Origin: a virus
Direction: 5' to 3' (one strand)
Length of the DNA: 64,000 nucleotides
Virus record (IMG/VR): IMGVR_UViG_3300013132_000028
Span: 53,838-117,837 of that record
The notes below the pieces were generated by a model. That model had not been told where the DNA came from. It was given only the letters and a program-made list of their open reading frames with translations, and did not search any database. The first letter of the stretch is position 1, and the number at the start of each line of letters is the position of its first letter. A program made the translations under genes and the position numbers. Below are positions 14,501-46,449 of this stretch, one piece after another.

Positions 14501-14723
14501 GTCCTCGCGTGCGGTCCAGCGACCTGCGTACTACTGTCATGGCCGCGCGTTTCGTGACGCGACGTTCTGGCAGCACCTTTGGATTCTCGTTGGCTAAGTA
14601 CGCCAACACGCTGTTGTACAGCAGCTGCGCCTGCTTTTGTACGGTGAGTCGCTGTGGTCTCTTGGCCGTGGCCGCTTTTTTGTCGATGGCGTTTACGAGC
14701 TTGTTTAGTATGTCGCTGCTCAC
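5550..14723 (-). CDS. Giant polyvalent virion-associated protein (PI3K/HipA-like kinase, WYL, SH3/KOW-like repeats, ART-like domains), 3057 aa
   Basis: Uninterrupted ORF between portal and protease. Kinase-like LGSNEGG..YYVK..NEVLAS..DAWLANWD..N..RVDTGGAL at about 9900-10585; WYL-like AIKDKKLLKFVYNGKERTVRP at about 8480-8680. Confidence 0.75.
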   Translation of the reverse strand: MSSDILNKLVNAIDKKAATAKRPQRLTVQKQAQLLYNSVLAYLANENPKVLPERRVTKRAAMTVVRRSLDRTRGLSFSIREYQALRDLGTFISMSQNPSNKTATFAENTDLLPLSHPLCSRTHSMTASALRQARGRWLSTDPRLEDDLRTVVASAFGAPVGTPAQVHAVAQLQSVIGRFVPNDVLSVEAQTIVAALKDGNSSAARRARAMLQRRDSEGQFAEMGGGLRWLLKAADGLVSWVTGRTVAADVDTDTFDVQTPDGKIYRVPAQATSGVKAVLKPSVDVDKKGEARYSSKDKVLTEADIKLVEAPAGFRVYKDTLQGRTTYMSTDDEYAVTKVDKPDQSLKDTIAEIRKHNESQESLEPDKREVRELIGDGENGAWDKQKPYYIATRMDQDSNGKPKLVPIGVAQNWADTQKIIKTDEPRLDKSVEEREVKARLKSDTWDAWQVKVDKFNEQAKALHAEHVAERMAMLKKQAADRIDNQGNPLEPGWSAVTPDEKNVRPPSEVVSIPGMYKDSGMGKELNPLDPGQGELFDADPTPKKYDVNDTEFVKNNALELSDGGDIVVARLEQNEDGSLRAPYVFGQSDGLEFKTFKDRPEFIEALKQSAAEKRAKLVKTLEEIGAEQKTIDAVKAESARRADIVEALAKDAKVDDIRQRAADAAWADKQSPDEKSVVKLSERLQNGNLWSSTEIDEMVAGKPRLDGPEDVEKPAAPQQQKKTVPTESKPFSYSVPSTAYKMNLETFSPEGPAEGQESSDYTDDPVEIGNRYAEAELRESLAKALINKQSEFDAYADEDFDSDIDDFDPDEMMDEDAPKKPGPKPKSKKKQAADSGVKTMDKDTAPASGFGMLEFNAGSEYVPAEALYKALEEQGVDAELYVAQLYDAKLGENKNVKALLDSRKGEETVGQESPDLADVFPTQADLDEMDSVKILSEGNDKLQIDETNEEQAKTFELSTAMNAYKKQYNEKIAAGEVDEATEAVYNDFIGADPGDKDYITQLEKHFDQDKFGSADDPFRAVWGSWMMEGPDNGQKRVNPALRQYAQDTLGMDEDEANDFTEGVIDAYGNPGELEEAIAAIEAEPELFNSSDAKYATAQALLKMSAVNSGTNATKVWKSYDLSDDQGFADALSEEGNVVSFPPDSWKKATGDIDDVLEGKSGDGTFVVVIDEGNGTSTPIGEERELVWGQYAVESVVDKDGRRIVRLRKLTPAENISINEDGNYLPYLIPNESIDLPEGYNLPDTDAYASEYNGADGNEVAAGFPEGFTDSPLYIADNWDTETLIDSLRIAVEPDLEEESAGYAILEYPLDGGTDILVSGQAIRDALQIQGVNTNLFFRDLAGTGDEVAPPSEEDVARQNKPALSKSKNPTGAIGTSVGSSFDITGWKKVGNQLGSNEGGTYEAPDGSKYYVKTPKSPLHAGNEVLASALYRRADVDGADTFFGVDEAGNMVTVSPILPDAKPDMAKKIDEPSYKKALQNGFAVDAWLANWDVAGLAMDNVVSVDGKPNRVDTGGALLMRAMGKPKGELFGDKADEWETLRDPDMNPQAAKIFGDMTEPELKASASKLLDITRADIDSLVAAAFPDEPVLQKTVADKLEMRRMDILERAGLTDKDTTVTVKNLKDAPAPADEDELTPGDAYVIAEDFADETLDAIKMYREQTDLPVEDLDLKEKLDELEKTVQQKKPVDNPGDIAEIQDEVEKVADYMQEKHGKGGEFKSIAENLRIAGDVAKKDKIDVVKSPVITAEEVDTSKYAKKAGDTQWFDDANPPKLSDDGNFVEVTLNDIGGDMPRFGGDEGPVDLAERGVPYIVAEGTAQDNTYDIQVRVPLDKMDEFTETWNELRQADLGPYTQAPAGYYEKPENFFGDVYRNAKADASAPKPEKLAVETPAEGSSPVGKSLSADGKTPIAAGMKVKSTKTGEVGVVSKLDVYKKKGVVFPDYAWVKFDGKKDKQLKTTKTLQIVDDGGFPEGGPGGGEPDTPAPTTPAPSSEPAVPLSPEPAPTAADDAVVLKTSETLEALHDQISKAIKDKKLLKFVYNGKERTVRPLNSWDNPKTGTKNLVAEDLGDGGKKKNFSTHLIESSASASADPVKPKPAELSAEQKYTAPPEPQLGTTDSYKVTNINDTTTFVSGSYFLNETVEYTPKELTELLGKPYEYGSGDKVQQEWSMRFESPDGAAIFARLYDWKTPDSLDPDKKYDWHIGGNNAKAVELVKNLLEAKKKEKSGAAEPKSSTTKTPVGNPALALDKKDLDNPELYEKKDTKVENLKVGDYIPYGSGWARVSSHGAAYNKGKKTHKFRMFLQHTNGNQQYVEYSGKTVIKSTRSPKSGTEINTPQPTVPNPPPPPSSSSQSESPLKSYTPDEWADATKKTVANNEIDFGPFDTNSALKYGALAAKNYIEEFTRYNALETTKEKSQIDYVAYSQYSGVFIVGVKDQPKPGIITSDGKITVASETNEYYKDNPHFQHVQADSPHATWLGLAFEKDDLAPIKDQFAPPPGANQKFKKDRFNNWLYKGVTVTDANGDEGVIYGFPGAKGYENYVQVQFLDGSKKVRSVDKVTGGRLFDQTKLTEAGPGVNVPELDDPDLASVDWSQSELTGAGVKSLVDAVAHVQSSPAAGARGRSAAVDAGDVEDLDVHMMTIVDGDKTYTRASFKLTSWAGDDLVAELLKKVPNTDEYDLLINQGIRMPKMRRNADGSMAIVKSGSQMDVEYSSSYNETTTYVITDKITGAVIRVYRANRDSKPVSSLNTSREGLAFHNRVEVLVPEQQDATSTANAIARGMKLGGVRAPRPATKEDVRVLAENRLISIFGKEIDPAKNVVGAARKAKLKAIEKLLGLPYEQMWLNLDTPAYDLNDRLSYRTSNAIAEYMVKKTETGAITHSFGIKGANNADSAAQEMFNLLMLEDGLKATSVRWTEGIGGQGDSSDADIRTGGADYLFTKPKATMKPYSVAADSHAYFHFDPLKLYSRLDFWANFKDQYGKRMKETDPIGEIKPAKPTSGSGTYELMFKNGISWADLAIISVSPAVRERLVKMLLDNGVPPEKYGASSWDDLIPVKK

Positions 14724-15520
14724 TGTGCCACCTCCTGTCTCGGCAGTAGGTCTAGGTCCTTGGAGGCGGTGCTCAGCTCAGCCAGTGCCAGTGCACGCTC
14801 GAACGGAGACTCTCCGTCTCGTACGGCGCGTAGCCAGGCCGCTCTGATGGCCGGCTCGGCTTGGTAGCCTAGTCCAGAAAACTCTGTCAGGGCGAGGACT
14901 GCTTGCTCTGGGTTCTCGTACTCACTCGGCTCTAGCAGCACGACAGAAAGTTCATCGGTCCACGCTACTTCGGCCGAAGCAAGTATCGAGTTGCTTTTCT
15001 TGGTCGAACGCGGGTGCTTTGCAGGAAGCAAGTCGTTGTCAGTGGTGTAGTTCGCGTTCTTTGGCCTGCCGCTCCTCAGCAGTTTTAGAAAAGCGTTGAC
15101 CCTAGCTGCGGCCCACTGGTCGCGCGTCATGCCTGGACGGTGACTGCCGGAGAATGCTCCTGCGCCGCGTCTGTACACTGCCTTGAGCATAGCGCTTGAC
15201 GCCTTGCGTCCCTCCGGTGCCTTCTCGTTGTGCTTGCGTACTTTCTCGGCGAGCATGGCTTCAGTCCGCTTTGAAAACTTAATTGACTTTGACTTTTTTG
15301 CGGTGGCAGACTTTGGCTTGTTTTTACTGGAGCCACGTACGCGCTCGCTGCGCTTTGCCTTCGGATGACGCTTGCCGACGGCCAGTTTCTCGATGTTCGA
15401 GGCTTCGTCTGGCACGCAGTTAGGAACTAGCTTTCCGTTTTTTCTTTTCATTCCGACTTGTTTGTAGCCCTTCCAACACGGCTTGGCGGCGCTCACGATG
15501 CTCTCTTCTTCGTACGACAC
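14720..15520 (-). CDS. Head-associated protein with PCWKGY module and DUF5824-like domain
   Basis: PCWKGYKQVGMK...VPNCVP and LKAVYRRGAGAF...QWAAARVNAFL motifs. Confidence 0.65.
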   Translation of the reverse strand: MSYEEESIVSAAKPCWKGYKQVGMKRKNGKLVPNCVPDEASNIEKLAVGKRHPKAKRSERVRGSSKNKPKSATAKKSKSIKFSKRTEAMLAEKVRKHNEKAPEGRKASSAMLKAVYRRGAGAFSGSHRPGMTRDQWAAARVNAFLKLLRSGRPKNANYTTDNDLLPAKHPRSTKKSNSILASAEVAWTDELSVVLLEPSEYENPEQAVLALTEFSGLGYQAEPAIRAAWLRAVRDGESPFERALALAELSTASKDLDLLPRQEVAQ

Positions 15521-15522
15521 GT

Positions 15523-17310
15523 CTAGGCCTTTGGCTCAGTTGGCAGTTCACCTGGGTCGGGTGCCTGTGCTGGCTCCCGTTCCGCCGGTGGTGCTACGTC
15601 TGTTGTCGGCTCCTCTGTCGTTTCTGTCGCTTCTGGTTGTGTTGCTCCTCGTGCAAGGTCCATGACTCGTTGTACGTCTGCAGGCAAATCTTCGGTGGCG
15701 TTACCACGAACTCTGGCCATGGTGTCCGGTGTAAACACTGTAAGCATGGCTTCTGTAAGCTCTGGAGTAATCTGACCCTTCTCTACTAGTATGCGAAGCG
15801 CTACCTCTGTCTCCGACGGTGCGTCGGCGCTTGAAAAGCCGTGAGCGCTGCGCCAAGCGTCTCCAGAAATAATGTGTCGGTCGTAGCCTAGATCTGCGTC
15901 TGATGCGCGGTCGTTGCGCGTGGACACGGCGCTCGGGTCATACCAAATAGTTAGCTTGTCTACCTCTGACGGAGTGTACCCATTGCTGATTAGGTACGGT
16001 CTGAAGTACACTACGGTGAGCGCGTCTACAATCAGCAGCATCAGCGGCTCGATGTGGGCTTTGTACATAGACTCGTCGATCTGCAGCGCGTTTGAGTACT
16101 TGATGTTTGCCATGCCGGTGACTACGTCCTTAGGAATGTCAATACCCTGCAAGATACGCTCCAGCACTCTGTCGGCACGCTGAGCCAGCTCAGGGTCAAA
16201 CGAGCGCTCAAACTTGAACTGCTTGATCTTGTCGCCGAGCTCTGCAGGTCCGCGAATGATGAGCGGAACGACTGCGCTGGCGGAGTCCTCGTCGCGGATT
16301 GGCGTGGTCATCGCGTCGATGAGCTGGTCCTCGAACTCGTCTTCTGCTTCCTGCGTGACTGCTCCCGGGTTGAGCAAGTCGTCGTCAATTACGTCCGGGT
16401 CACCGCTGGCGGCGACGGACAAACCGTCTGGTAGGTACAGTGCTCCAGCGTTTAGGCGCGAACGAGCTGTGGCACGAAATGTTCTGTTTAGCAGTAGCAG
16501 CTCAGCGCAGAGATCGAGCATGCCGCGTAGGCTGGAGTCTGCCTCGTCGGAGAAGCGAGGGTGTGCTCTCCAAATGCGTCCGACAAACGCGTTGCCAGGT
16601 AGCTCATAGCCGCCTCGTCTCGAGCCGGCCTGTCCACCGCCCATCTGCTCACGACGGCTGATGAGTGAGAATGATCTGTTCTTGTTGGTGACGGCGACCA
16701 CCTCGTCGGTGCTTTTAATGTCCCAAGACTCTGGAATACCGGAACCAGGTCTAGCCGGTACCTGTACTAAATAGCACTCGCCACAAACACTGAGATTCAG
16801 CGCTGCGTCTCGCAGTAAACCAGGTTGACCACCGTACGCGGAGTCCAGGCGGGTGATTGCGCGCTCCGCCGCCATTGCTAGGTTTTTGTCTACACTTTGT
16901 ACGTCTCTCACTGACTTAGGCGCCTCTGACGGATCGTCGATTATTGCGGGATAGAGACGAATACGCGAGATTACTGAGGCCACTAGATTGAAGGCGTACT
17001 TGATCTCGCCGATGGCGTCGTAGTACTCCCACGCTTCTCTCTGCCAAGCAGAGCTGGCGGAGTTGCGGCGAAGTCTAAATTGTTCGTACTCGTCGCGGCT
17101 GTTCATCTTTACCTGCACCGCAGCCGCGGTCATTACACGCGGTGAGTTAAAGGGCCCTGCCGTTGCCGGAGAAAGAAATATAGACGACAGTCCTCTTGAA
17201 CTGGGAATGACTGTGTTAGAAATAGTTTTGTCAGCCGCGGAAGATGCACGCAAAGAAACGGCCGATGTCGTAGGTTCGTCAGAGCTTGGAGTACGTCTGA
17301 ATATGCTCAA
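15523..17310 (-). CDS. Portal protein
   Basis: WQREAWEYYDAIGEIKY, WRAHPR...ADS, ARSRL.AG, DSASAVVP match actinophage portals; start re-called to TTG at 17310 after AGGAG. Confidence 0.75.
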   Translation of the reverse strand: MSIFRRTPSSDEPTTSAVSLRASSAADKTISNTVIPSSRGLSSIFLSPATAGPFNSPRVMTAAAVQVKMNSRDEYEQFRLRRNSASSAWQREAWEYYDAIGEIKYAFNLVASVISRIRLYPAIIDDPSEAPKSVRDVQSVDKNLAMAAERAITRLDSAYGGQPGLLRDAALNLSVCGECYLVQVPARPGSGIPESWDIKSTDEVVAVTNKNRSFSLISRREQMGGGQAGSRRGGYELPGNAFVGRIWRAHPRFSDEADSSLRGMLDLCAELLLLNRTFRATARSRLNAGALYLPDGLSVAASGDPDVIDDDLLNPGAVTQEAEDEFEDQLIDAMTTPIRDEDSASAVVPLIIRGPAELGDKIKQFKFERSFDPELAQRADRVLERILQGIDIPKDVVTGMANIKYSNALQIDESMYKAHIEPLMLLIVDALTVVYFRPYLISNGYTPSEVDKLTIWYDPSAVSTRNDRASDADLGYDRHIISGDAWRSAHGFSSADAPSETEVALRILVEKGQITPELTEAMLTVFTPDTMARVRGNATEDLPADVQRVMDLARGATQPEATETTEEPTTDVAPPAEREPAQAPDPGELPTEPKA

Positions 17311-17417
17311 GTTTTTCTCCTGCACGGTCGTTTGGGCACGGAGTATGACGTCTGTCCCGGAGAACAATTTTCATACGCGGTGATGCGGCAATCATACACG
17401 CAAAATGGGCAGTGCTA

Positions 17418-17705
17418 CTACAGTTTTTGAACCTCGTGCAGCGTCCTCGCCAGGTCGGCTATGTCCTCGAGTGAGAGCACCACGGCCACTTCTGGCCCGG
17501 CCATCTCCTCTATCTGGTCCAGCAGGGGAGAGAGCTCCTCCCGGCTGAGACCGCTCCTTTGGCAGAGGTATCTCTGCATTTCTTCCAGCACCCTGGCCAG
17601 GTTGTTCTGCACGTCGTCTATGGACATCTGTATCAGCTCCAGCCTGAGCTTCATGTCCTCTACACTGTCCTGCTTGTCATACTTCCAGGCATCATCGTGG
17701 TGCAT
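17418..17705 (-). CDS. Hypothetical protein
   Basis: 95-aa acidic helical ORF with GAGG RBS. Confidence 0.55.
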   Translation of the reverse strand: MHHDDAWKYDKQDSVEDMKLRLELIQMSIDDVQNNLARVLEEMQRYLCQRSGLSREELSPLLDQIEEMAGPEVAVVLSLEDIADLARTLHEVQKL

Positions 17706-24008: not shown

Positions 24009-24350
24009 TTATACCGCATCTCCCTGCCCAAGTACAGCAGCCTTGTCTTGTATAGCAGCCTCGTCTAGGCTGGCGACTCTTTTACGGACCCTCTCGTACA
24101 GCTCCGCGGGTATGAAGCCACTGGCCATACCGGTGAGCCAGAAGTTCTTCATGTACGCTACCAGCTCTCGTATCTCCGCACTGTCCTTGAGCGTGCACTC
24201 GTTCTCGCACGCGTCTAGGCCGTGGAATGCTCGGTGGATTAGCCTACCCAGCTCGGTGTCTGCTCTTTGCTCTCTTATCAAGTCCAGGATGTGGACAGCC
24301 CAGCGGTCGACCATCTCGTCGTCGGTCACGACCATCTCGTCGTCGGTCAT
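24009..24350 (-). CDS. Hypothetical protein
   Basis: Coupled to DUF2958 gene; 21-bp tandem duplication at its start. Confidence 0.55.
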
Positions 24351-24655
24351 TTGTCCAGCAGCTCGCGCAGGGTCTTTGGTTCCCAGTTGCGGTCTCGCTC
24401 GATGCTAGGCACCTCGACCGCGCCGAAGCTGGTGGTCAGGCTCTCCAGCTCCTTGAGGGAGAAGTATCCCAGCTCTCGCTCCAGTCCATCGACCAGTCCG
24501 AAGAACAGGTCCTCTCCGTCGAACTCGGACGCGTACCAAGTCCAGCTTGAGTACGGCGTGAAAAACTTGACCAGCGCCTTGGCGTCTAGGCCCTTGTCCT
24601 CTTGTGAGTACAGCTTGGGCAGCTTGGCCCGCAGCTCCTTGGTGAGCAGCATCAT
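24347..24655 (-). CDS. DUF2958 family protein
   Basis: VKFFTP.S.WTWY..E....LFFGLV...E.ELGYFSL.EL. Confidence 0.8.
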
Positions 24656-24676
24656 GTGTCGTTCCTCCTTGTTAGG

Positions 24677-24763
24677 TACAGTCCACCAGGTGTCGGAGTT
24701 GTTTGCCGGGGCTCCTAGGATTTCGACCCCTCAGTTTGGCCACCGAACTCCTGGTGAACTGTA
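24677..24763 (-). ncRNA. Candidate structured leader RNA (family member A)
   Basis: 14-bp closing stem with G-U on the minus strand, starts at predicted +1, nested stems. Confidence 0.5.
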
Positions 24764-24829
24764 TAGATGTATTATAGCGCAGGAGGGTGACAATGTACAC
24801 CCTAGCCGGCAGGTGTTTCTAAAAAGGTT

Positions 24830-24925
24830 GGTGTGCGCTAGTCCGATGCTTCGTATAGGCAGCCCGAAGCTGCCCCATCGCTCACTGCAGGGACGAGACT
24901 AGTTCGACAACACGTCACGCACACC
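24830..24925 (-). ncRNA. Candidate multi-stem ncRNA
   Basis: Nested GGTGTGCG/CGCACACC, CTAGTC/GACTAG, CGATG/CATCG, GGCAGC/GCTGCC with a CUUCGG loop. Confidence 0.5.
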
Positions 24926-24966
24926 TTGTCTCGTTTGCGCAGGTTTCTAAGGCTTACCCGGGAATA

Positions 24967-25257
24967 CTAGCCTTCGGCAGTCAAGCTGCTTGCCCCTGCG
25001 GGCTCCTGAGATGTCTTCCCGGAGTTCTTTTTGGTTTTGTTCTCGTACTCGTCTCTGGTCGGGTGCTTCTTGTGCAGCTGCACGAAGCTCTCGTCCGCAC
25101 AGCCGAGCTTGCAGCTGCAGACGTAGAGACGCTCGTAGTAGCGGATGGACGGCTTGCACTTGTCGTGCTCGCCCATCATGCACCAGCCACAGAGGGTACC
25201 GGCACTCCGCACGATGTAGTCGATTGGAGTGTTGTACGGGTCTTCTATCTTTGCCAC
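24967..25257 (-). CDS. Cys-rich hypothetical protein
   Basis: CGWC...H..C...CSC motif. Confidence 0.6.
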   Translation of the reverse strand: MAKIEDPYNTPIDYIVRSAGTLCGWCMMGEHDKCKPSIRYYERLYVCSCKLGCADESFVQLHKKHPTRDEYENKTKKNSGKTSQEPAGASSLTAEG

Positions 25258-25421
25258 GCTGGCGCTTTGGCCATTTCTTCTACGTCTTTCTTAATCATCG
25301 CGTATGCGTTTCCGCACCGGTAGCAGTACGTCTCGGTGGGAATGCCGCCGAGAATAAAGGCGTCTACTCCCGAGAAGACCAGTTCGGTGTTGTGGCAGTT
25401 AAAGGTTTTGCACTGCTTCAC
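25245..25421 (-). CDS. Small zinc-finger protein
   Basis: CKTFNC...YCYRC; GTG start after GAGG. Confidence 0.55.
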   Translation of the reverse strand: MKQCKTFNCHNTELVFSGVDAFILGGIPTETYCYRCGNAYAMIKKDVEEMAKAPAWQR

Positions 25422-25582
25422 GATAAGACCTCGCTCTTGCGTTGCAGTTCGGCGTATGCACGCTCTAGTTGAATGTGCTCTCTCATCAGCGTTCCGTACG
25501 CGCGGATGCTGATTATGATTACAGTGCACGCTCCAAGGAGCGCAATAATGATTGCAAGAATGTCAGTTGTCAACAGCGTCAT
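25418..25582 (-). CDS. Small membrane protein
   Basis: Hand-translated MTLLTTDILAIIIALLG; AGGAG RBS. Confidence 0.55.
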   Translation of the reverse strand: MTLLTTDILAIIIALLGACTVIIISIRAYGTLMREHIQLERAYAELQRKSEVLS

Positions 25583-25588
25583 CTTTTG

Positions 25589-25879
25589 TTATCTCCTTTT
25601 TGCTTTGCGAAGAAAGTAAACGAATCCACCGAGTGGACTTGCCAGGACGTACGCTACCACGAAACCGGTGAAGCCGTCTAGTATGAAACCGACGACCAAG
25701 ATTGCGATTGCAAACAGTTTCGCGAACCGTGCCCAGGTCAACATGGACCAGAACATTCCGAAAAGCATGGTGAACTCTTCGCGGTCTTCTTCGACGGTGT
25801 GGAAGGACTTGCGCTTTGAGCGCATGGCCTTCTTGCCGACGGTTAGAATCGCCGAGTCGTGCATTGCTCCGTATAGCAT
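25589..25879 (-). CDS. Membrane protein
   Basis: Two hydrophobic segments; GAGGA RBS. Confidence 0.55.
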   Translation of the reverse strand: MLYGAMHDSAILTVGKKAMRSKRKSFHTVEEDREEFTMLFGMFWSMLTWARFAKLFAIAILVVGFILDGFTGFVVAYVLASPLGGFVYFLRKAKRR

Positions 25880-25957
25880 TTTGTCCTCGTTCCTCGAACC
25901 GCTTTGGTTCGATAGATGTATTATACCGTAATGGACCGACAAAGTACACCCTGAAAG

Positions 25958-25993
25958 GAAGAAACCCCCGGGAGATGAAACCGGGGGTTCTTC
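25958..25993 (-). terminator. Intrinsic terminator
   Basis: CCCCCGG/CCGGGGG stem followed by a U-rich tract on the minus strand. Confidence 0.65.
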
Positions 25994-26005
25994 GGGGAGA
26001 CCTGC

Positions 26006-26335
26006 TTACTTGGCTTGGAGGACCGTGTAAGGTGTCTCGGTTAGGCAGGCAGTGTATGCCTCTGGGAATGATACTTGCAGGGTCTCGCGGTCAATGCCGC
26101 TGCGATTGCGCTTGAGAATGCGTACTCGTTCTACGCCGTTGATGGTTCCAGTCTCCGCGTCGCCTAGGAGCTCTCTGATTTGACCCTCGACCTCTAGCTT
26201 TTGAGCTTCTAGAGCCTTCAGGGCGGCTTTGGTGCTGTTGAAGCTAACGATTAGCTTCTCTGCTTCTTTACCGAGCTCGACCGAGTCGGTAGTTGTGGAG
26301 ACCACTACTTTGGTCTCTATCTTGGTGCTGGCCAT
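26006..26335 (-). CDS. Coiled-coil protein resembling the YqaJ C-terminal/Gp157-type region; paralog of 36329
   Basis: VEL...LE..K.E....I...LGDAE....NGV.RV.....S.IDR..L...PE.Y. Confidence 0.6.
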   Translation of the reverse strand: MASTKIETKVVVSTTTDSVELGKEAEKLIVSFNSTKAALKALEAQKLEVEGQIRELLGDAETGTINGVERVRILKRNRSGIDRETLQVSFPEAYTACLTETPYTVLQAK

Positions 26336-26426
26336 TCGACCACTTCCCTTCGTCTTTCGTCTTTGTCCAACCGGTTGGTTGAATAGATGTATTATACTAT
26401 AGTGGAGCGACAAAGTAAAGCATCTG

Positions 26427-26499
26427 AGCCGCCTTCGGGAGTCGAACCCGAGGCCTTCGCTTTACGAGAGCGACGCTCTACCGACTGAGCTAAGGCGGC
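26427..26499 (-). tRNA. tRNA-Thr(CGT)
   Basis: Cloverleaf GCCGCCT/AGGCGGC, anticodon loop CT-CGT-AA, TTCGACT loop; no encoded CCA. Confidence 0.95.
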
Positions 26500-26503
26500 A
26501 GGC

Positions 26504-26779
26504 TCAGTCCATTTCGCGGTCATCCGCGCCGGTCTCGCCGGGGAACAGGAGCTCCCGCAACCGCTCTTCGTACCTCGAAGCGGTCCAGTCTCCTGACAGG
26601 TCTTCGTTGTTGGACAGGTCCTCCAGCGAGAACACCGCACAGTAGCCGGGCTCTTCGAAAAGAACCGCGAGCTTGGTGTCGCTCTCGGCGGGGTCGTCGA
26701 AAATTGCGACAGTGTAAGGCATTCCGCCTCGGCCATTCCTGTGCGAAGCAGAGGCCACAATCTCGATTTTCGAGGTCAT
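26504..26779 (-). CDS. Hypothetical protein (HRNG motif)
   Basis: 91-aa ORF in operon. Confidence 0.55.
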   Translation of the reverse strand: MTSKIEIVASASHRNGRGGMPYTVAIFDDPAESDTKLAVLFEEPGYCAVFSLEDLSNNEDLSGDWTASRYEERLRELLFPGETGADDREMD

Positions 26780-26800
26780 GGCCCTACTCTACCGCACGAT

Positions 26801-27007
26801 TTAGCCTACCTGGGTAAGCTCTCCGCAGCCGGTACACCAGTACCAGTCTCCGAGTACTGAGTCCTCGTCGAACTCGTGCTGCCACTCGAACTTGTCGTGG
26901 TCGCAGTTTTCTGGGTTTTTCGACCCGTCTCCCCGCACGACTTCAGAGTCGTCCACACGAACTAACCCGTCTGGTTCCATTCTAAATCTGACTATTCCGT
27001 CTACCAC
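26801..27007 (-). CDS. Small zinc-ribbon protein
   Basis: CDH...WYWCTGCGELTQVG. Confidence 0.55.
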   Translation of the reverse strand: MVDGIVRFRMEPDGLVRVDDSEVVRGDGSKNPENCDHDKFEWQHEFDEDSVLGDWYWCTGCGELTQVG

Positions 27008-27237
27008 AGGTCTTCCGCCTCCATTCGGTAGATGTGTCCTGGACCATTTCCCTCTGGGTCTTGACTCGGTACCATCACGGTACCGTCATCTAGGGTGAAC
27101 ACCACCGGCACACTTCCGCCGCCTTGGTACCAACCCATGTTTTCTACTTCTTCTTCGGTCATCTCCCGCACAGACTTTATGGTACGACCAACCAGTGGTC
27201 CCCACTCGTCTTGCACGTAGTCTTTACGTACTGCCAT
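27001..27237 (-). CDS. Hypothetical protein (DPEGNGPG motif)
   Basis: AAGGA RBS; own promoter. Confidence 0.65.
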   Translation of the reverse strand: MAVRKDYVQDEWGPLVGRTIKSVREMTEEEVENMGWYQGGGSVPVVFTLDDGTVMVPSQDPEGNGPGHIYRMEAEDLW

Positions 27238-27519
27238 ACGAGTCCTTCCGTCGTTTCGCGAATAGGTTTCGCGTTAGACCTATTATACCGCAAGGTGGGG
27301 TCAAAGTGTACGCCCTAGGAGAGTCCGCGCTACTCACGGGTAATGTTACCGGTGGGTAGCGAGCTTTTCTAAGTCGGGGATTTACCCAGGGGTACCGCAA
27401 AAAACTTTTCTGAGAATCTGCTCCCCTAGGGTGTACAAACGTCAGTGCTAAATGGTATAATACAGTTATTGAATCAAACAGACGGGTTTGGTTCTCTTAA
27501 CGAGATGGAGATGGATTAG

Positions 27520-27807
27520 ATGAATACTAATCTGAAGGAGCTTCAGTCCTTCTCACTTGAGACCGCATTCAAGGCGGGCGAAGAGTGGACAAGCGCTGAG
27601 ACTGATGTTCTTGCCAAAGCAAGAGCAGAAGGCATAAACTACTTTGCAATAGCAAAGATGTTAAACCGCACTGTTTACTCAGTGACGACTCAAGCAAGAG
27701 TGGTGGGAATTGCAAAACCACACTCAAATGCTCGCAAGAGCAAGAAAGTCCCAGTGCCTGCTTGTGTAAACTGCAACTTAGTGCACTCTTACAAGGAGTG
27801 CGACTAA
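27520..27807 (+). CDS. Myb/HTH-like protein with C-terminal CxxC
   Basis: WTSAETDVL...IAKMLNRTVYSV; promoter at 27432-27461. Confidence 0.65.
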   Translation: MNTNLKELQSFSLETAFKAGEEWTSAETDVLAKARAEGINYFAIAKMLNRTVYSVTTQARVVGIAKPHSNARKSKKVPVPACVNCNLVHSYKECD

Positions 27808-27910
27808 ACTAAATGCCAGAAGGGCATTGACTAAATGTCAGTGCCCTAAGGTATAATAGAACTACAACTGAATACAGAAACCAACCAACGACAAAGAGAT
27901 GGAGAAACAA

Positions 27911-28156
27911 ATGAGCGCTAAATGGTGCTTGATGAACACCAGCGATGGAAGTCGCGGTGAGAGCGGCAAGAAGAAGGTCTACGAGGTAATCCTCGAAGGC
28001 AAAAAGGTTCGCATGATTTGGGGCATGGCAGAGAAAGATTCTCGCCAGTCAAAGACCATGGAGTTTGCTACTGAACTCGCTGCTAAGTGGTTTGCTCAAG
28101 ACAAGGTTCGTGAAAAGATTCAAGAACGCGGATACGAGTTGGTCTACTCAGTCTAA
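27911..28156 (+). CDS. WGR-domain-like protein
   Basis: KVYEV.....V...WG.......K...F....A......K..EK...GY. Confidence 0.7.
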   Translation: MSAKWCLMNTSDGSRGESGKKKVYEVILEGKKVRMIWGMAEKDSRQSKTMEFATELAAKWFAQDKVREKIQERGYELVYSV

Positions 28157-28168
28157 AACAAAAAACAC

Positions 28169-28201
28169 AAACCCTCTGCTGGAAGGCGGAGGGTTTTTTT
28201 T
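28169..28201 (+). terminator. Intrinsic terminator
   Basis: AACCCTCTGC/GCGGAGGGTT stem followed by a T run. Confidence 0.8.
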
Positions 28202-28227
28202 ACGCTCGCGCGCTTTTGGCGGCAAAA

Positions 28228-28279
28228 GCATTTCGCGATTATCCGCGCAAACTCTTTGGCATTTCGCGATTATCCGCGC
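28228..28279. repeat. 21-bp direct repeat pair GCATTTCGCGATTATCCGCGC
   Basis: Exact copies at 28228-28248 and 28259-28279. Confidence 0.9.
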
Positions 28280-28432
28280 GGACTACATGTTTATTTACAG
28301 AATGAGCAGTAGTTATTAACCCGTATGTCTGAAACAGGGATGCTAAATAGTCTAGCGCAATGGAAGCATCTGACCGTTGCTAATCTATTTCTAGACCTAA
28401 CAAGAGTTTTTAATTTGGTTAAATTCACAGCG

Positions 28433-28675
28433 CTAGTTCTTGACTTCAGCGCGGTAGTACTGGATTCCTTCTGCTTCCTGCGTCAGGTCTTTGACCCAAG
28501 GCAGACGGTGTCTCGGCGCGTCAAGCATCGAGCTGGCGAACTCCACGGCCGCACGCTTCGCGGCGCCGAGAGTCGAGCAGGCGGCACGGCGGTACGTGTC
28601 TGTGTCTGCGTCCTTCACTTCTACCAGCCACGCCGACTGTGGCGCCTTGTTTTTCAGCATTGTTGCGACTATCAT
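28433..28675 (-). CDS. Hypothetical protein
   Basis: AAGGA RBS; ATGA overlap. Confidence 0.55.
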   Translation of the reverse strand: MIVATMLKNKAPQSAWLVEVKDADTDTYRRAACSTLGAAKRAAVEFASSMLDAPRHRLPWVKDLTQEAEGIQYYRAEVKN

Positions 28676-29325
28676 TTGCGTCCTTTCACTCTGTTTTTCT
28701 TCAAGACTTTTCTGAGCGCCCGGCTCTTTCCGGTTGTCTTCTTGTAGCCGTACCGTACCATACGATGTGACACGGCCGCGTTAGTGACTCCCAGCAACCT
28801 TGCCAGCGTGGCAAGCTTCACCTTCTCTACCCGCACTGAGTAGTTCAGCAGGCGCACGAACTCGTCCGCCTCCGCACGGTTTTTTGGGCTGTGCCCGCGT
28901 ACGGCCGCGGCGTTCGGGAGCAGCTCCAGCAGTCGCCGTTTCGTTTGCTCGCTGGGCTGTGGCGTTTTTCTCTCGTACCTGCCGGCAGACCTCTCCGCGT
29001 AGACCGGCGGAAGTGGCAGCGGGTAGTGTGTAAGCACGTAGTCGAGCCAGGCGTCTTTCGGCTTGGTTAGAGTTATCTGCCGCACTCTTTCGCGGGTCAA
29101 GTCCATCGCGCCGGCGACCGCGCTGAGTGTCCAGCCCAGTTTTACGAGCTTCCAGGCGTATGCGCTCCGCATGTGGTTGCCGCCGAGGTACATGTGCGAC
29201 CCGGGCCGGAGCGAGTTCTTTAATTCTTTTTTGAACACCGCGTGGACCTCAGGCGGCAGGGCCTGGTGTGCCTTCTTGATTTGTCCCCACTTGCCGTACG
29301 GGACTGTGTCTACCACTTCTTGCAT
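28672..29325 (-). CDS. Double-HTH protein with sigma-region-4-like motif
   Basis: WTLSAVAGAMDLTRERVRQI and LATLARLLGVTNAAV. Confidence 0.7.
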   Translation of the reverse strand: MQEVVDTVPYGKWGQIKKAHQALPPEVHAVFKKELKNSLRPGSHMYLGGNHMRSAYAWKLVKLGWTLSAVAGAMDLTRERVRQITLTKPKDAWLDYVLTHYPLPLPPVYAERSAGRYERKTPQPSEQTKRRLLELLPNAAAVRGHSPKNRAEADEFVRLLNYSVRVEKVKLATLARLLGVTNAAVSHRMVRYGYKKTTGKSRALRKVLKKNRVKGRK

Positions 29326-29433
29326 GTAAGCCTTTCGTTTTGCCGGTTGGTAATCGTATGGACAGTTTTAAGCCGTATCCAGGGCTCTCCCAGCGCTACT
29401 AGCCCGAGATGGGATAGGGCGAGCGCTAGAAAC

Positions 29434-29898
29434 CTATTTATTCTGAAACAGAATGGGAAACTGCCGTTCGAACAAGTCCTCCTCGGAGAGGCAGCCGCCT
29501 TCTTCGTGCGCTTTTTGCGTGAACTCTTCGCCGGTGATTGCCCTGTACACTACCTTTGCCTGCTCGAAGCCGGCTTCGCCGCCGTCGGAACTCAGCAGGA
29601 TTGCATCCGCGAAGTGTCGCTTTGCCAGCAGGAGTGCCGTCGTGACGACTACGTCGTAGTCGTACTGATTTGTTTTGCAGAAGTCAAAGCCAGAGTCCTT
29701 GGGTTGGATTACCAGCGACTCGCACGGACCGGTTATGACGACCTCGTGTTGATTCGCGAGTATCCCGCACTTGATGTTGACGCCAGCGGACTTGGTCCGC
29801 GACACTTCTACCTTCAACTTTTTTATGTCCGTCACGAACTTGCTGAAACTCTGTGGGTCCAGCGGTTTCTTGACGTTCCAGTAGTGGGTGTATCCCAT
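29434..29898 (-). CDS. Conserved hypothetical protein (MGYTHYW / FCKT family)
   Basis: MGYTHYW...FDFCKT...YD..V...SSDG. Confidence 0.7.
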   Translation of the reverse strand: MGYTHYWNVKKPLDPQSFSKFVTDIKKLKVEVSRTKSAGVNIKCGILANQHEVVITGPCESLVIQPKDSGFDFCKTNQYDYDVVVTTALLLAKRHFADAILLSSDGGEAGFEQAKVVYRAITGEEFTQKAHEEGGCLSEEDLFERQFPILFQNK

Positions 29899-29985
29899 CT
29901 TTGTCCTTTCGTCTTTTTGCGGACTGTCCGCATAAACTATTATACCGCAAGGGGGTGACGTTTGTCAACCCCCTGCAGTTTAATG

Positions 29986-30240
29986 TTATAGATACTGGAT
30001 GTGTTCTCCAGTGGTTGGGTCGAACGTCAGTTCGACCACGAAGTCGAGGACCTCGACTGGGACTTCGTCCCGGTCTATCTCCTCTTCGTCTCCCTCTAAC
30101 CAGAAGTTGACGTTTGTGTCTTCGACTCCCTCGTCGTCAGACAGTAGTTGAATCACGTAGGTTTTACCCTCGAACTCAACCGTGAAGTTTTGGTACCAAC
30201 GACAAGGTGTCGGTGTTTCCATCTTCTTTAGGTTTACCAT
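29986..30240 (-). CDS. Acidic hypothetical protein
   Basis: GGAG RBS; own promoter. Confidence 0.6.
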   Translation of the reverse strand: MVNLKKMETPTPCRWYQNFTVEFEGKTYVIQLLSDDEGVEDTNVNFWLEGDEEEIDRDEVPVEVLDFVVELTFDPTTGEHIQYL

Positions 30241-30319
30241 GGTTCTCCCATCTCCAGTCTACTTCTTGTTCGACTGAATAAATGTATTATACCGTGCAGG
30301 ACTGACGTTTTGTACACCC

Positions 30320-30559
30320 TCAGTTGGCGTGTTGTCTTGCGTCCTCGAGCATCATCACCATCAGTTTCTTGAGTGGTTTTGGGATTTCCTCGTACGGGAT
30401 TTCGAGTACGGAGTCTTCGTCTCCGAACGTCATCATGTAGCAGATTTGGTCGACTATGTCCTCGCTGGAGTATTCCAGTTTTACCGGCACTAGGTCTCTG
30501 CCCGCGAGCAGCAGCGCCTTTGCCGCTTGGGAGATTTGCGTTGCCTCGTTCTTTCTCAT
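30320..30559 (-). CDS. Hypothetical protein
   Basis: GGAG RBS. Confidence 0.55.
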   Translation of the reverse strand: MRKNEATQISQAAKALLLAGRDLVPVKLEYSSEDIVDQICYMMTFGDEDSVLEIPYEEIPKPLKKLMVMMLEDARQHAN

Positions 30560-30562
30560 CGC

Positions 30563-30709
30563 CTACTCCTCCTCGTTCAGTACGTACAGCAGGGTTCCCA
30601 TGTCGAACCCGAGACCAGTCCGCACTATGATTTCTTCGCCGTCTAACACCACGGTTGCACCGGGCATGTTCTCGCTCACGAAGTCCTTCAGGTCTTGCAG
30701 TGTGTCCAT
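30563..30709 (-). CDS. Small acidic protein
   Basis: Hand-translated MDTLQDLKDFVSENMPGA; AAGGA RBS. Confidence 0.55.
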   Translation of the reverse strand: MDTLQDLKDFVSENMPGATVVLDGEEIIVRTGLGFDMGTLLYVLNEEE

Positions 30710-30742
30710 CTCTTGCCGTCCTTTTCGTCGTTGGGTTTAAGG

Positions 30743-30823
30743 TTCAACACGGAGCGGCGTATTGTTTCGGACCCTGCGCAGTAGCAGTCTTTCGTTTGAC
30801 CAGCGCCTGTCCTCCGTGTTGAA
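30743..30823 (-). ncRNA. Candidate structured leader RNA (family member B)
   Basis: Perfect 12-bp closing stem at predicted +1; shares UGGYCAAAC and AAACAA with 24677-24763. Confidence 0.5.
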
Positions 30824-30859
30824 TAACTGTATTATACCGTGTTGCACCGACAAAGTAAA

Positions 30860-31114
30860 CTAGACAGACTTGTCGCCCTCTAGTAGAGTGATGAAGTCGG
30901 AGTGCATCTCTTCTATCGGAGTGCCGAACTCCCAGATTGTCTTCTCAAACTTGTCCGGTGCCTCGTAGATGACGCCGTCGCGGATGTCCAGCTCACGGTC
31001 TGTTGCCACGTCTGCTGGAATGTCGGATGCCCGCATTACGTAGATGACACTGTCGGGATTGAACTCCCACCAGTCGCCGTTCTCGTTTGCCAGGTACAGA
31101 GGTTTGGTCGCCAT
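30860..31114 (-). CDS. Acidic hypothetical protein
   Basis: Start re-called to MATKPLYL (TGATG overlap). Confidence 0.55.
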   Translation of the reverse strand: MATKPLYLANENGDWWEFNPDSVIYVMRASDIPADVATDRELDIRDGVIYEAPDKFEKTIWEFGTPIEEMHSDFITLLEGDKSV

Positions 31115-31353: not shown

Positions 31354-31428
31354 CGTCTTTTCGTCCTTTTCCGGTCAGACTGTCTGACCATCTGGTTGTA
31401 TTATACCATAATGGAGCGACGAAGTAAA

Positions 31429-32503: not shown

Positions 32504-34294
32504 TTACGCCGCGGAATTCTTGACACCAATCTTTGCCAGCAATTTACTCGCCGCCATGCCAATCTGCTTTGAGACGTACTCCACCTCAGAGGTTTCATCA
32601 GTCTTGATGACTACGCCGTCTGCAATTTCGGCGTATGTGCGCGAGGAACTGTGATGTGTAAACGGTACCCAGAGTACGGCGACGCCGGCACTCTTGCAGG
32701 CGTTCATCCACTTGGCGGTGTGTTGGCGCTCTTCTGGAGTGTACTCACCGTCGCTTACGACGACGAGCATGCGTGCACCTGAGCCGTGCAGAAGGTTGAG
32801 TGCGCCATCGAGTGCCTTGAATGCTTTGTCGAACTTCTCAGTTCCGTCGTGCGCGGTGTAGACGTTTACTTCGTACTCTCTTGCGAGTGGTTTGCTCGTG
32901 TAGAACACGTCGTTGCCATAGTACACCTGGGCATAGCGACCCTGCACGCGGTGTGCAGCCTCGCTCATTACCCACGCAGTGGTTGCCATTGGCTGCATCG
33001 CTGAGTCCATAGAGCCAGAGATGTCTACCATTACACCTACTGAAAGCGTTGGGTCATCTGTGTGCTTGCGTGTGGTCTTGCGCCAAGGAGTGACTGGCGT
33101 ACGTACACCTACAGACTTTTGAGCAGCACCCTGCACTACTGTGCGAGTGTGTAGACGTCCTGGAGGCAACTGCGAAGCGGAGACAGTGATGTCGCGCTCG
33201 CGGTACTTTGCCTTTTCTAGGGCGTTGCCAATTAGAACTGCTGCTGCTCGTTCCTGTGGAGTCGGTGGACGATGTGTTGCTAGGCGTGAAGATGTCTCTG
33301 AGGCACCAGGACCACTTGACTTGCCAAATACCTTGTTGTAAGTATCTTTGTGGTCTTGCTGCTCGGCTGAGGCTCGGTAGCGTTCAGCGACTGCCTGACG
33401 ACGTGCTTCTTCGTCCTGGGCGTCGTGAATGTCACCAGTGACACCTACTGCTACGCAGTCGGCTGCTTCTGCCAATGCTTCAGTCAGTGCTTCAATTAAA
33501 CCTTTGCTAGGTGCGTCGTTCAAGGTCTCGCCGTGCTCTTGTGCTGCGTCTTTTAGAATGTCTAGCCACTCGTCTACGAGAGGATACAACGCAGTGATGT
33601 CTTTGTCGTCTGTGTGTGCGCGAGTCTTGTTTAGAATTTCGCGAAGGCGAGAAACTCGGTCGTCGCCGAGCCAGTCACTGCATACGTCGAAGACAGCCTG
33701 TACGTCACGTTGGTCGAGAATACCTGCGTCGACTCTAGAGTGTACGAGAGCGACAAGCATACCTGCACTTCTAGTTGTAGAGTTCTTTGTGAACTGTTCG
33801 GCTGCGTCGTCAATCGCAATTTCGAGCGCACTTGCACGGAGGAAGTTAACGTACTCGGGCGCGATTGTAAGGGCGCGAGACTCGACTCTGGACTCTTCGA
33901 ACAGGACGAGTGTCTGGTGCTGGGATTCATTAAGGTCATCTGCTGCTTTCGCTAGGTCCCACAGGGAGTATCGTGCGTGCATTGCCTCGTGGAAGATACA
34001 GCCTGTGGCTTTTGGCCACTCGTACTGAGTGCTCTTGTCGAGCAGTGAGCCAATATCTCCTGGCTTGACATAGGGGGTGAATGCCATTGGAATGCTTACT
34101 TCAACCTCTGCAGTAGCAGGGGTGAAGAATGCGGCGGTCTGTCCGCCGGCGCCGGGGCCAACGAAGGCAACGATGTCCGAGCGGTTGGACCAGGTGTTTA
34201 CCAGTTCAGAAATCTCTCGACTGAGAGGCAGCCACTCGGGAGGAGTGCTAGCTTTCCGACCAAGCACACCGGGTGTGTAGTCTACGTGGTTCAT
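32504..34294 (-). CDS. CobT-like vWA-domain protein with HExxH N-terminal domain
   Basis: HEAMH, FEESRVE, GRL, MIDAS DISGSM and VVSDG. Confidence 0.85.
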   Translation of the reverse strand: MNHVDYTPGVLGRKASTPPEWLPLSREISELVNTWSNRSDIVAFVGPGAGGQTAAFFTPATAEVEVSIPMAFTPYVKPGDIGSLLDKSTQYEWPKATGCIFHEAMHARYSLWDLAKAADDLNESQHQTLVLFEESRVESRALTIAPEYVNFLRASALEIAIDDAAEQFTKNSTTRSAGMLVALVHSRVDAGILDQRDVQAVFDVCSDWLGDDRVSRLREILNKTRAHTDDKDITALYPLVDEWLDILKDAAQEHGETLNDAPSKGLIEALTEALAEAADCVAVGVTGDIHDAQDEEARRQAVAERYRASAEQQDHKDTYNKVFGKSSGPGASETSSRLATHRPPTPQERAAAVLIGNALEKAKYRERDITVSASQLPPGRLHTRTVVQGAAQKSVGVRTPVTPWRKTTRKHTDDPTLSVGVMVDISGSMDSAMQPMATTAWVMSEAAHRVQGRYAQVYYGNDVFYTSKPLAREYEVNVYTAHDGTEKFDKAFKALDGALNLLHGSGARMLVVVSDGEYTPEERQHTAKWMNACKSAGVAVLWVPFTHHSSSRTYAEIADGVVIKTDETSEVEYVSKQIGMAASKLLAKIGVKNSAA

Positions 34295-34421
34295 GTCTTG
34301 TGTCCTCTTCTCTTAGGGTTTAGACTCTTGAATGTATTATATCGTGTTTGGGTCTAGAAGTAAAGTTAGGGGGTGGAGAGGGAGGTGACCCAGTACCTCC
34401 CCCTCCTCCAGCAACGAAGAG

Positions 34422-35492
34422 TTAAATCTTCGCTGGTCGGCACTCCTCACCGTAGACTCGACCTAACACGTCCGCAACGACGGCGCGGTCGTGCTCGGGA
34501 GCACTTGCGATGAGGTTCGCTAGTGCGAACTTTGTGCCGAACTTTGTTGAGATGTCACGGAAGGCGAGGAGTTCTCGCATCTGAGGTGCCCATGACACTT
34601 CACTTGATTGTTGTTTGCGTGCAAGATTTTGCGCCGCATTAACTAGTTGTACCGGTGTACCCAGTTTACGTGCAAGCGTCCAGTCTGTGGTCATCTCTGA
34701 CTGCAGACGAAAGCGAGACACGAGCGCTTCAGAGAGACGAACTCCCGGAGCGTTTGGGTTTGTCGCAGCGACGACGAAGAAGTTTTCCTTCACCTTTATT
34801 GCGCCGCGGTCTGGGTTTGCGGTTATCAGCAACTCGGTACGACCGTCCATGATTCCGTAAACACCGGCCATGACCTTAGGGTCAATCAGACCTACTTCGT
34901 CGATGAAGAAGACTGAGTCGTTTTCGAGTGCACGAACGAGTGGTCCATCAACCCATCTGAATGAGTCTTTGTCTTGTACGTAGCCACCAATGAAGTCAGA
35001 AAGTTCTGTGTCACCGGTACCAAGTACGGTTTCAATACCACCTGGTTCGCTGGAGAATGCTGCTTCTAGCAGAGCGGTTTTGCCGCAGCCAGGAGCACCA
35101 TAGAGCAGAGTGTGAAGTTTACTTGCACGAGCTTCACGAAGTACCATTACGTCGTCGTGCTCACCCCACTTGCGTGTGTAGTAGTCCTCACCATTAGGGC
35201 GAGTGTACTTTGTTGCTCCAGCAAGAGAGTCTACTTCGTTTTCCATTGCACTCTCTTTCTTTGAAGCAATAACAGTGTTGGCACGTATAACTACTCTACC
35301 AGAGTCTGAGACTAGAGAGTCGAGTATACTTTTGCCAGCAGGATACGCTTGTTGTACTACTGTCAACCCAAGCAGAGAAGCCACAGTGTCTGAGGTTCCT
35401 ACTCCTGCCTTGAGTGACACCAAACTTGTGGCGCATACGCCAAGTTTGTCTTCGTACCTGGAAGTCCAGGGATTAGATGATGTTGTAGTCAC
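34422..35492 (-). CDS. CobS/CbbQ/MoxR-family AAA+ ATPase
   Basis: Walker A GAPGCGKT, WVDGPL, Walker B FFIDE, ATNP, ALVSRF. Confidence 0.9.
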   Translation of the reverse strand: MTTTSSNPWTSRYEDKLGVCATSLVSLKAGVGTSDTVASLLGLTVVQQAYPAGKSILDSLVSDSGRVVIRANTVIASKKESAMENEVDSLAGATKYTRPNGEDYYTRKWGEHDDVMVLREARASKLHTLLYGAPGCGKTALLEAAFSSEPGGIETVLGTGDTELSDFIGGYVQDKDSFRWVDGPLVRALENDSVFFIDEVGLIDPKVMAGVYGIMDGRTELLITANPDRGAIKVKENFFVVAATNPNAPGVRLSEALVSRFRLQSEMTTDWTLARKLGTPVQLVNAAQNLARKQQSSEVSWAPQMRELLAFRDISTKFGTKFALANLIASAPEHDRAVVADVLGRVYGEECRPAKI

Positions 35493-38158: not shown

Positions 38159-38232
38159 TCGGGGTGACGAGATTTGAACTCGCGACCTCCTGGTCCCGAA
38201 CCAGGCGCGCTACCAAGCTGCGCCACACCCCG
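38159..38232 (-). tRNA. tRNA-Pro(CGG)
   Basis: CGGGGTG/CACCCCG, anticodon loop TT-CGG-GA, TTCAAAT loop. Confidence 0.95.
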
Positions 38233-46378: not shown

Positions 46379-46449
46379 CTCCTCGACCTGGACTCGAACC
46401 GGGACTGGATGCTCCAGAGGCACCTGTGCTGCCATTACACAATCGAGGA
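46379..46449 (-). tRNA. tRNA-Gln(CTG)
   Basis: TCCTCGA/TCGAGGA, anticodon loop CT-CTG-GA, TTCGAGT loop; one T-stem mismatch. Confidence 0.9.

Follow-up and report, generated by a model that had tools for sequence, protein, structure and literature searches.

The final 64 kb of the 117.8-kb virus record IMGVR_UViG_3300013132_000028 in IMG/VR (record estimated to be 88% complete; G+C, 53.9%; these 64,000 nucleotides are called the window below) carry two copies, A and B, of a compact RNA element that almost certainly represent a real structured RNA. On sequence evidence, the element is a new RNA family absent from the catalogs that belongs among the structured leader and early RNAs of phages, and its comparative support is solid. 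An earlier note on this DNA had described a two-member structured RNA family at the +1 of early promoters. Both copies lie on the minus strand where the note had placed them (A at 24677-24763 and B at 30743-30823) and have the sequences that it described. The number two holds for this genome, which has exactly two copies, but not for the family, of which we found at least 23 distinct sequences elsewhere. In the sections below, we describe the fold and its conservation, the distribution of the family, and its placement at early promoters, and we weigh what such an RNA might do early in infection.

Copies A and B share a single nested fold

Across the family, the element is 72 to 87 nt long and forms one nested rod of three helices, P1, P2, and P3. 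P1 (9 to 14 bp) pairs the predicted 5' terminus of the transcript, P2 has 4 bp, and P3 forms a short hairpin whose tip varies. P2 is separated from P3 by an asymmetric internal loop of 13 by 9 to 10 nt, A-rich and invariant, in which UGGYCAAAC and about 4 further nt face CG-AAACAAY, with at least 20 invariant and largely unpaired nucleotides. Copy A is composed of a 14-bp P1 with one G-U pair, an internal loop of 3 by 2 nt, P2 (UCGG/CCGA), UGGCCAAAC, and the central hairpin, which is followed on its 3' side by GGC-AAACAAC, one spacer base, P2', and P1'. Copy B is composed of a 12-bp P1, a loop of 4 by 1 nt, P2 (GGCG/CGCC), one spacer base, UGGUCAAAC, GAAA, and the central hairpin, followed by CG-AAACAAU, one spacer base, P2', and P1'.

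Folded as single sequences, copy A reached -39.9 kcal/mol (z score of -4.28; none of 200 shuffles was as good) and copy B reached -28.9 kcal/mol (z score of -2.55; 3 of 200 shuffles were as good). In some minimum free energy (MFE) folds, UGGY paired with the 5' strand of P3; this pairing is not conserved between classes and was dropped. Scanning the window with R2, the second of our two covariance models, with filters off returned only A and B, the next match having an E value of 0.19. That match (45266-45326, plus strand, 16.9 bits) is a GC-rich hairpin with UGUCCAAAC and is probably due to chance. By inspection only, same-sense occurrences of both loop strings in the 117.8-kb genome formed no antisense-target pattern.

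Covarying helices surround an invariant loop

Further homologs with covariation were found in IMG/VR contigs and in metagenomes by pattern scans and covariance models, and we realigned 23 distinct sequences to the covariance model. Standard pairs filled 98.6% of the 415 pair cells (100% for P1, 100% for P2, and 93.5% for P3), compared to 36.6 to 44.9% when the 3' partners were slid by 1 to 3 columns. Both sides had changed in 16 of the 19 pairs, and the covariation score of 0.726, compared to 0.252 for shuffles, was reached by none of 500. The same compensations as in the fitted alignment were visible by eye in the raw sequences. Columns UGG.CAAAC, CG, and AAACAA were identical in all 23 sequences, whereas the stems changed completely. 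The observation first made on A and B, that the stems differ in sequence yet pair while the unpaired UGGYCAAAC and AAACAAY are conserved, therefore extends to the whole alignment. The view of the earlier note that this is a functional structured RNA motif is supported by the homologs, by the covariation of the stems, and by the lack of an Rfam match described below.

The closing pair of P3 is U-G in 17 of 23 sequences and U-A in 4. Because U-G reads as a C-A mismatch on the complementary strand, and because the element keeps a constant sense orientation after promoters, RNA is favored over DNA. The P3 tip occurs in five forms: a CGAMA bulge with CC-UGCA-GG (form 1), GCUA with CU-GCGC-AG (form 2, copy B), UC-CUAG-GA (form 3, copy A), a plain CCUUC-UGCA-GAAGG hairpin (form 4), and a 4-bp stem with a 7-nt loop (form 5). 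In L130 and L155, the tip is nearly stemless. Zero-spacer palindromes are found at the apex, with lengths of 8 to 14 nt in 10 of 14 central variants, 6 nt in an eleventh, and 2 to 4 nt in three. Since 8-nt palindromes were each reached by 6 to 11% of shuffles and the variants are related to each other, we regard dimerization through the apex as a weak lead.

The palindromes also bear on whether the element might be a self-cleaving ribozyme or might function at the DNA level, either as an operator palindrome or as a miniature transposon with terminal inverted repeats. P1 resembles such repeats, and a short CUA-like string flanks several copies. However, P1 differs completely between classes, whereas ends recognized by a transposase should be conserved, and the apex palindromes are weakened as evidence by their frequency in shuffles and by the three variants with only 2 to 4 nt. 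The U-G pairs are as expected of an RNA, as are the unvarying strand and +1 position, and no ribozyme family in Rfam 15 matched. We consider a ribozyme or a DNA element highly improbable. A miniature inverted-repeat transposon was rejected specifically, as P1 is not conserved in sequence though it is paired, and its position does not vary but is always the predicted +1.

Two hybrid elements (L058:1029-1105 and L244:131-207) join P1 and P2 of the L035 class to P3 of the copy B class and show a compensatory GAG/CUC change. Their sequences suggest recombination inside the RNA gene. UGGY is complementary to RCCA at the 3' end of tRNAs, the kind of pairing made by T-box bulges, and there may be short resemblances to Y RNA, SRP RNA, and the 16S decoding region; we did not rely on these likenesses, and Rfam, which includes those families, gave no match. 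The loop pattern UGAGC/CAAAUAA of repeated-loop leader hairpins had no match in the window; it matched in seven of our loci, and the two that we inspected appeared to be chance occurrences.

The family is found in large uncultured phages related to actinophages

A first pattern scan of IMG/VR (TATAAT..TGGYCAAAC..AAACAAY) matched at least 115 stretches, at least 22 of which were real; the other 93 of the 115 listed matches were chance occurrences in AT-rich DNA. Of these loci, 21 that had been picked with a closing-helix filter were checked with R1, a covariance model built from nine sequences, and the remaining 94 were checked with R2, which found only L028 to be real. In the real matches, the P1 and P2 sequences were entirely different and the pairing was kept. 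A second, promoter-free pattern yielded 20 stretches with 6 new loci, 4 of them real, and a third scan yielded 48 stretches with 13 new loci, 1 of them real. Covariance-model searching likewise recovered homologs beyond both copies. R1 gave 26 real matches in the window and 24 loci of relatives, and it detected no further copies in these loci save one spurious match (L052:6461-6523; E value of 4.7) that was dropped from all counts. On 91 metagenome stretches, R1 gave 47 matches in 46 stretches, all with E values of 5.8e-5 or lower. Beyond the genome of the window, the family extends to at least 25 IMG/VR contigs (by contig names) and 46 metagenome loci, many of which are repeat sightings of the same phages.

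The author of the earlier note had not recognized the family, and Rfam 15 likewise contained no family that matched it. When the whole window was searched with all 4227 models, only three tRNAs reached the gathering score. Within 24400-31100, nothing overlapped A or B at an E value of 10 or lower, and on eight further loci nothing overlapped the element at an E value of 5 or lower. Literature searches by loop strings or topic, which covered main texts, found nothing on the motif; among the loop-string matches listed, the strings were those of primers, small interfering RNAs, or aptamers.

We also searched one genome from each of 185,579 prokaryote species with the two-motif pattern. None of the 23 matched stretches was real, with the best R1 E values being 0.71 and 0.98. 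As far as this exact pattern can tell, the element would be an RNA of phages, neither a host RNA nor an element common in prophages. An RNA anti-CRISPR (solitary repeat) and a type III antitoxin RNA were rejected as identities, as the element occurs as a single copy rather than in tandem and the exact two-motif pattern had no real prokaryote match.

The hosts of the element are large (~115- to 136-kb) uncultured phages related to actinophages. Three relatives are complete (129.5 kb with terminal repeats, 130.6 kb, and 136.4 kb), and each has exactly one copy. By its AAA+ ATPase gene, the phage of the window is closest among named phages to Actinomycetia phage DSL-LC01 (62.7% amino acid identity), followed by Microbacterium and Gordonia phages. 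DSL-LC01 is a lake metagenome assembly (PMC10611076). We detected no copy in its whole record at an E value of 1 or lower, and the best match in its early region with filters off had an E value of 0.61.

P1 begins at the predicted start of early transcripts

In the window, the 9-mer TATAATACA occurs 18 times with at most one mismatch, including 11 exact occurrences, compared to an expectation of 3.07. Most of these boxes fall on the minus strand, from 24.7 to 40.7 kb, and mark an array of near-identical early promoters. Between 22556 and 40661, we counted ~14 early promoters, mostly on the minus strand, that consist of TTTACT or TGTACA, 17 nt, and TATAATACA. A consensus scan of the window placed full -35/-10 promoters at 24771-24799 and 30831-30859, upstream of A and B, respectively. 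In both copies, P1 begins 7 nt past the TATAATACA box, that is, 7 nt after TATAAT, so that the placement at the +1 of early promoters proposed in the earlier note is borne out for the predicted start. Copy B is behind the 9th promoter and copy A behind the 13th of the 14 in the array. The complete relatives have 14 to 15 TGATATAAT promoters each, clustered on one strand. In these relatives, the element follows the 3rd, the 3rd, and the 6th promoter from the upstream side; one of the three elements has a promoter with TGT in place of TGA, which we assigned by its coordinate.

This spacing is a constant feature of the family. The distance from the end of the -10 box to the first P1 pair is 7 nt (range, 5 to 8 nt) in all 23 variants. 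The -10 box is TATAAT, TAGAAT, or TACAAT, mostly with an extended TG. In the variants inspected, the base preceding P1 is A, so the predicted transcript probably begins with a single unpaired A. Other leaders of this phage are also folded at the 5' end, as 7 of the 13 other early leaders in the window have a hairpin within 5 nt of the predicted +1. Sealing of the 5' end may thus be general in this phage, which leaves the internal domain as the special feature of the element. Two of these seven hairpin-first leaders contain strings that are one base off UGGYCAAAC (UGGUCAGAC at 31382-31390 and GGUCAAAAC after the promoter at 36734).

One explanation for these results is that the element is purely a cis-acting 5' leader, either a 5'-terminal stabilizer or a processing or translation signal whose loop is the site of an RNase or a translational regulator. 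Hairpins at the 5' terminus protect bacterial mRNAs from 5'-end-dependent decay, and stabilizer hairpins of the ompA type, like the element in all 23 variants with their predicted starts, include the first transcript nucleotides in a helix. The hairpin-first leaders of the window and the position of P1 at the predicted +1 are in line with this explanation, as is a start codon 19 to 34 nt past P1 in 19 of 23 variants (of the other four, one, L174, is truncated at the contig end, and the rest are the three stand-alone units described below). In these leader variants, the ribosome-binding site is outside the fold. However, a plain hairpin would be enough to seal an end, as it is in the other leaders, which leaves the 20 or more invariant unpaired nucleotides unexplained. 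ompA-type stabilizers function without a conserved internal loop and are not known to occur as transcription units of their own, whereas three variants of the element have no downstream cistron in their cassette. In addition, the genes served are unrelated. We consider a purely cis leader unlikely, although it is among the better-placed alternatives. Past the element by 10 to 30 nt, the window and the related loci show a ribosome-site context of ACGACGGAGG or GACGGAAGGA that is common to many early genes with or without the element.

The element is not linked to a particular downstream gene

The earlier note had called the downstream genes unrelated, and our annotation agrees: copy A precedes a gene for a DUF2958 protein, and copy B precedes a 48-amino-acid open reading frame (ORF) without a Pfam match. 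Across classes, the genes after the element include those for DUF2958, the 48-amino-acid ORF, F18, F44, F7, and others, and some genes that are served elsewhere are located in the window behind promoters that lack the element. A search led by DUF2958 gave nine related loci. Copy A is kept in three near-identical loci (96 to 97% amino acid identity), where the P1/P2 loop is 2 nt shorter by deletion. In the six distant loci (47 to 63%), we saw no element when inspecting 220 nt of sequence 5' of the gene. Since the element was seen only in the three near-identical loci, we rejected a tie of the RNA to DUF2958.

The gene contexts also bear on ligand binding. Covarying helices around an invariant, largely unpaired core are the usual anatomy of an aptamer, and the loop, with CAAAC on one strand and GAAAC on the other, appears roughly two-fold. 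The element could therefore be a riboswitch with an unusual read-out or an aptamer that sequesters a small molecule without an expression platform. By MFE folds and inspection, however, we found no terminator/antiterminator and no sequestration of the ribosome site. No constant gene class or pathway is downstream, no known riboswitch in Rfam 15 matches, and the element was found only in phage contigs, with none of the 23 prokaryote-genome pattern matches being real. The missing expression platform and the missing constant gene class argue against a classical riboswitch, and a ligand-binding aptamer of either kind seems improbable to us. A narrower version, a platform-less aptamer made in bulk at the start of infection that would sequester a small host signal such as a defense nucleotide second messenger, is compatible with the roughly two-fold loop, the lack of a platform, the cassettes that hold the RNA alone, and the occurrence in phages only. 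We would give this version very little credence; if true, phages would have an RNA equivalent of their protein "sponges."

Stand-alone cassettes suggest an autonomous RNA module

In three variants (L022, L052, and L172, together eight loci), the promoter is followed by the element, ~25 nt, a strong hairpin, and then at once the next promoter. The cassette hairpin covaries between L022 and L172, and in MFE folds of these units the element and the terminator hairpin are separate. L022 and L052 have a six-U run within 3 nt after P1. By inspection, the sole ATG frame in the cassette spacer has no ribosome site, and since a 1-nt indel shifts this frame between L022 and L052, it is unlikely to code. 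The RNA is then the sole cargo of the transcription unit in three variants, which is our main reason for reading the element as a module that acts as RNA. We lean toward an autonomous RNA module that does not act via a particular downstream gene, and we hold this to be moderately probable.

The same cassettes bear on processive antitermination by an RNA alone, as by the put elements of phage HK022. In that phage, putL is ~70 nt long and just past an early phage promoter, put occurs in two similar copies with conserved folding, and its two adjacent stem-loops form a V that grips the β' zinc-binding domain and needs no particular downstream gene (PMC9378689). By analogy, the element would bind the elongating RNA polymerase of the host as soon as it is transcribed and let the enzyme pass the terminators that end the early gene cassettes. 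The size of the element (~70 to 87 nt), its place just after an early promoter, its two similar-sequence copies in this genome as in HK022, and its independence of a particular downstream gene resemble those of put. Furthermore, the early region is built of promoter-gene-terminator cassettes, a strong hairpin directly follows the element in L022, L052, and L172, and only one or two promoters per genome bear the element.

Other findings are less easily reconciled with a put-like antiterminator. The put RNA has two side-by-side stem-loops, whereas covariation supports one nested rod for the element. Searched with R1, the whole HK022 genome gave a single match (E value of 0.39), which falls inside a tail gene (14137-17688); the early region of HK022 gave none. 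Neither in the complete relatives nor in this phage does the element follow the first promoter of the array, and in this phage it is as far down as the 9th and 13th promoters. Past A and past B, the minus strand shows no convincing intrinsic terminator. A new promoter directly follows each stand-alone cassette, so that read-through is not needed for the next gene. In addition, the host of HK022 put is Escherichia coli and that of the element is an actinobacterium-type organism, and, unlike put, three variants of the element stand alone in their own cassette. We regard put-like antitermination as unlikely, while ranking it slightly ahead of a purely cis leader.

The explanation that we place first, tentatively and with less than even confidence, is that the element is a decoy, sponge, or scaffold RNA that binds a partner. 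The conserved fold, the invariant loop, the predicted start at +1, the independence of particular genes, and the stand-alone units together suggest an early RNA with a protected 5' end whose loop is read by a partner. The RNA would be made early and in quantity from one strong early promoter (two in this phage) of ~14 and would persist as a stable RNA, either on its own or forming the 5' domain of an early mRNA. P1 may shield its 5' end from 5'-end-dependent decay, and the invariant loop may be bound by a conserved, hypothetical partner. The partner would probably be a host protein (an RNase, RNA polymerase, or a defense protein) or else a conserved phage protein, and the RNA would act as a decoy, a sponge, or a ribonucleoprotein scaffold. 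A precedent comes from the cluster A mycobacteriophages (L5, D29, and StarStuff), in which an actinophage RNA is likewise made from an early lytic promoter; this Pleft RNA is very abundant, stable, non-coding, and of unknown function (PMC5712189). Unlike the element, the cluster A RNA comes from a ~500-bp region at the genome end (PMC5712189), and we do not expect the two to be related.

Several points weigh against a partner-binding RNA. All transcription starts were predicted from -10 boxes only and were not mapped. The alignment was fitted to the covariance model and is biased towards structure. The element would be dispensable within the lineage, as the nearest named relative, DSL-LC01, is without it. 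As the element is a leader in 19 of 23 variants, a purely cis role fits most cases, and a stand-alone cassette is also what would be expected of a cis antiterminator set before a terminator.

Phage early regions decide the success of an infection, and to our knowledge their non-coding parts have hardly been explored except in phages of E. coli. The element is a compact RNA of 72 to 87 nt with strong comparative support, an invariant core of at least 20 nt, a defined (predicted) start, and natural stand-alone versions, and it is ready for bench work. If its partner is the host RNA polymerase, it would extend RNA-only antitermination beyond the lambdoid phages; if the partner is a defense or decay factor, it would represent a new RNA-based counter-defense.

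Features of the two loci and their surroundings

Coordinates of the elements, their parts, their promoters, and the genes that follow them are listed in Table 1.

Table 1 Features at copies A and B and related leaders (window coordinates)
Feature	Coordinates	Strand	Basis
Copy A, whole element, 87 nt	24677..24763	-	Fold z -4.28; R1 76.8 bits; R2 67.1 bits, E 3.7e-13
Copy A, P1 5' arm, 14 nt, starts 7 nt past -10 box	24750..24763	-	Sequence
Copy A, invariant strand UGGCCAAAC, start of J2/3	24734..24742	-	Alignment
Copy A, P3 hairpin GGGG...CCCC, CGAAA bulge, apex UCCUAGGA	24708..24730	-	Sequence, alignment
Copy A, invariant strand AAACAAC (J3/2)	24698..24704	-	Sequence, alignment
Copy A, P1 3' arm	24677..24690	-	Sequence, pair analysis
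Early promoter of copy A: TGTACA, 17 nt, TATAAT	24771..24799	-	Consensus scan, 10/12 matches; TATAATACA box
DUF2958 gene, start codon 21 nt past copy A	24347..24655	-	Pfam PF11171, E 1.6e-14
Copy B, whole element, 81 nt	30743..30823	-	Fold z -2.55; R1 39.5 bits; R2 70.1 bits, E 7.6e-14
Copy B, invariant strand UGGUCAAAC	30794..30802	-	Alignment
Copy B, P3 hairpin GACU...GGUC, apex CUGCGCAG	30770..30789	-	Sequence, alignment
Copy B, invariant strand CGAAACAAU	30761..30769	-	Sequence, alignment
Early promoter of copy B: TTTACT, 17 nt, TATAAT	30831..30859	-	Consensus scan; TATAATACA box
48-amino-acid ORF after copy B, no Pfam match; homologs follow the element in L130, L023, L063	30563..30709	-	
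Other leaders with a 5' hairpin (promoter positions)	39284, 36734, 31405, 30291, 26396, 25925	-	
Other leader with a 5' hairpin (promoter position)	27456	+	

A second nested structured element of ~105 nt is found at 24826-24930 on the minus strand, between the preceding cassette and the promoter of copy A (-41.4 kcal/mol; z score of -2.29). The relatives L003 and L004 have its visible part in their upstream flank as well, and this second element is probably a 3' structure or terminator of the upstream cassette. Three tRNA genes are on the minus strand (26427-26499, 38159-38232, and 46379-46449), the first two of which are inside the promoter array, each directly 5' of a promoter. An early protein of 217 amino acids (28672-29325, minus strand) has a weak match to Sigma70_r4 that is under the cut-off (E value of 7e-5), and its homologs (cluster F4) are encoded in most related early regions. 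At 32504-35492 on the minus strand, an AAA_5-type ATPase (356 amino acids; E value of 1.9e-19) adjoins a 596-amino-acid protein with a weak VWA_CoxE match under the cut-off, and this CobS/CobT-like pair is common to DSL-LC01 and the Microbacterium and Gordonia phages.

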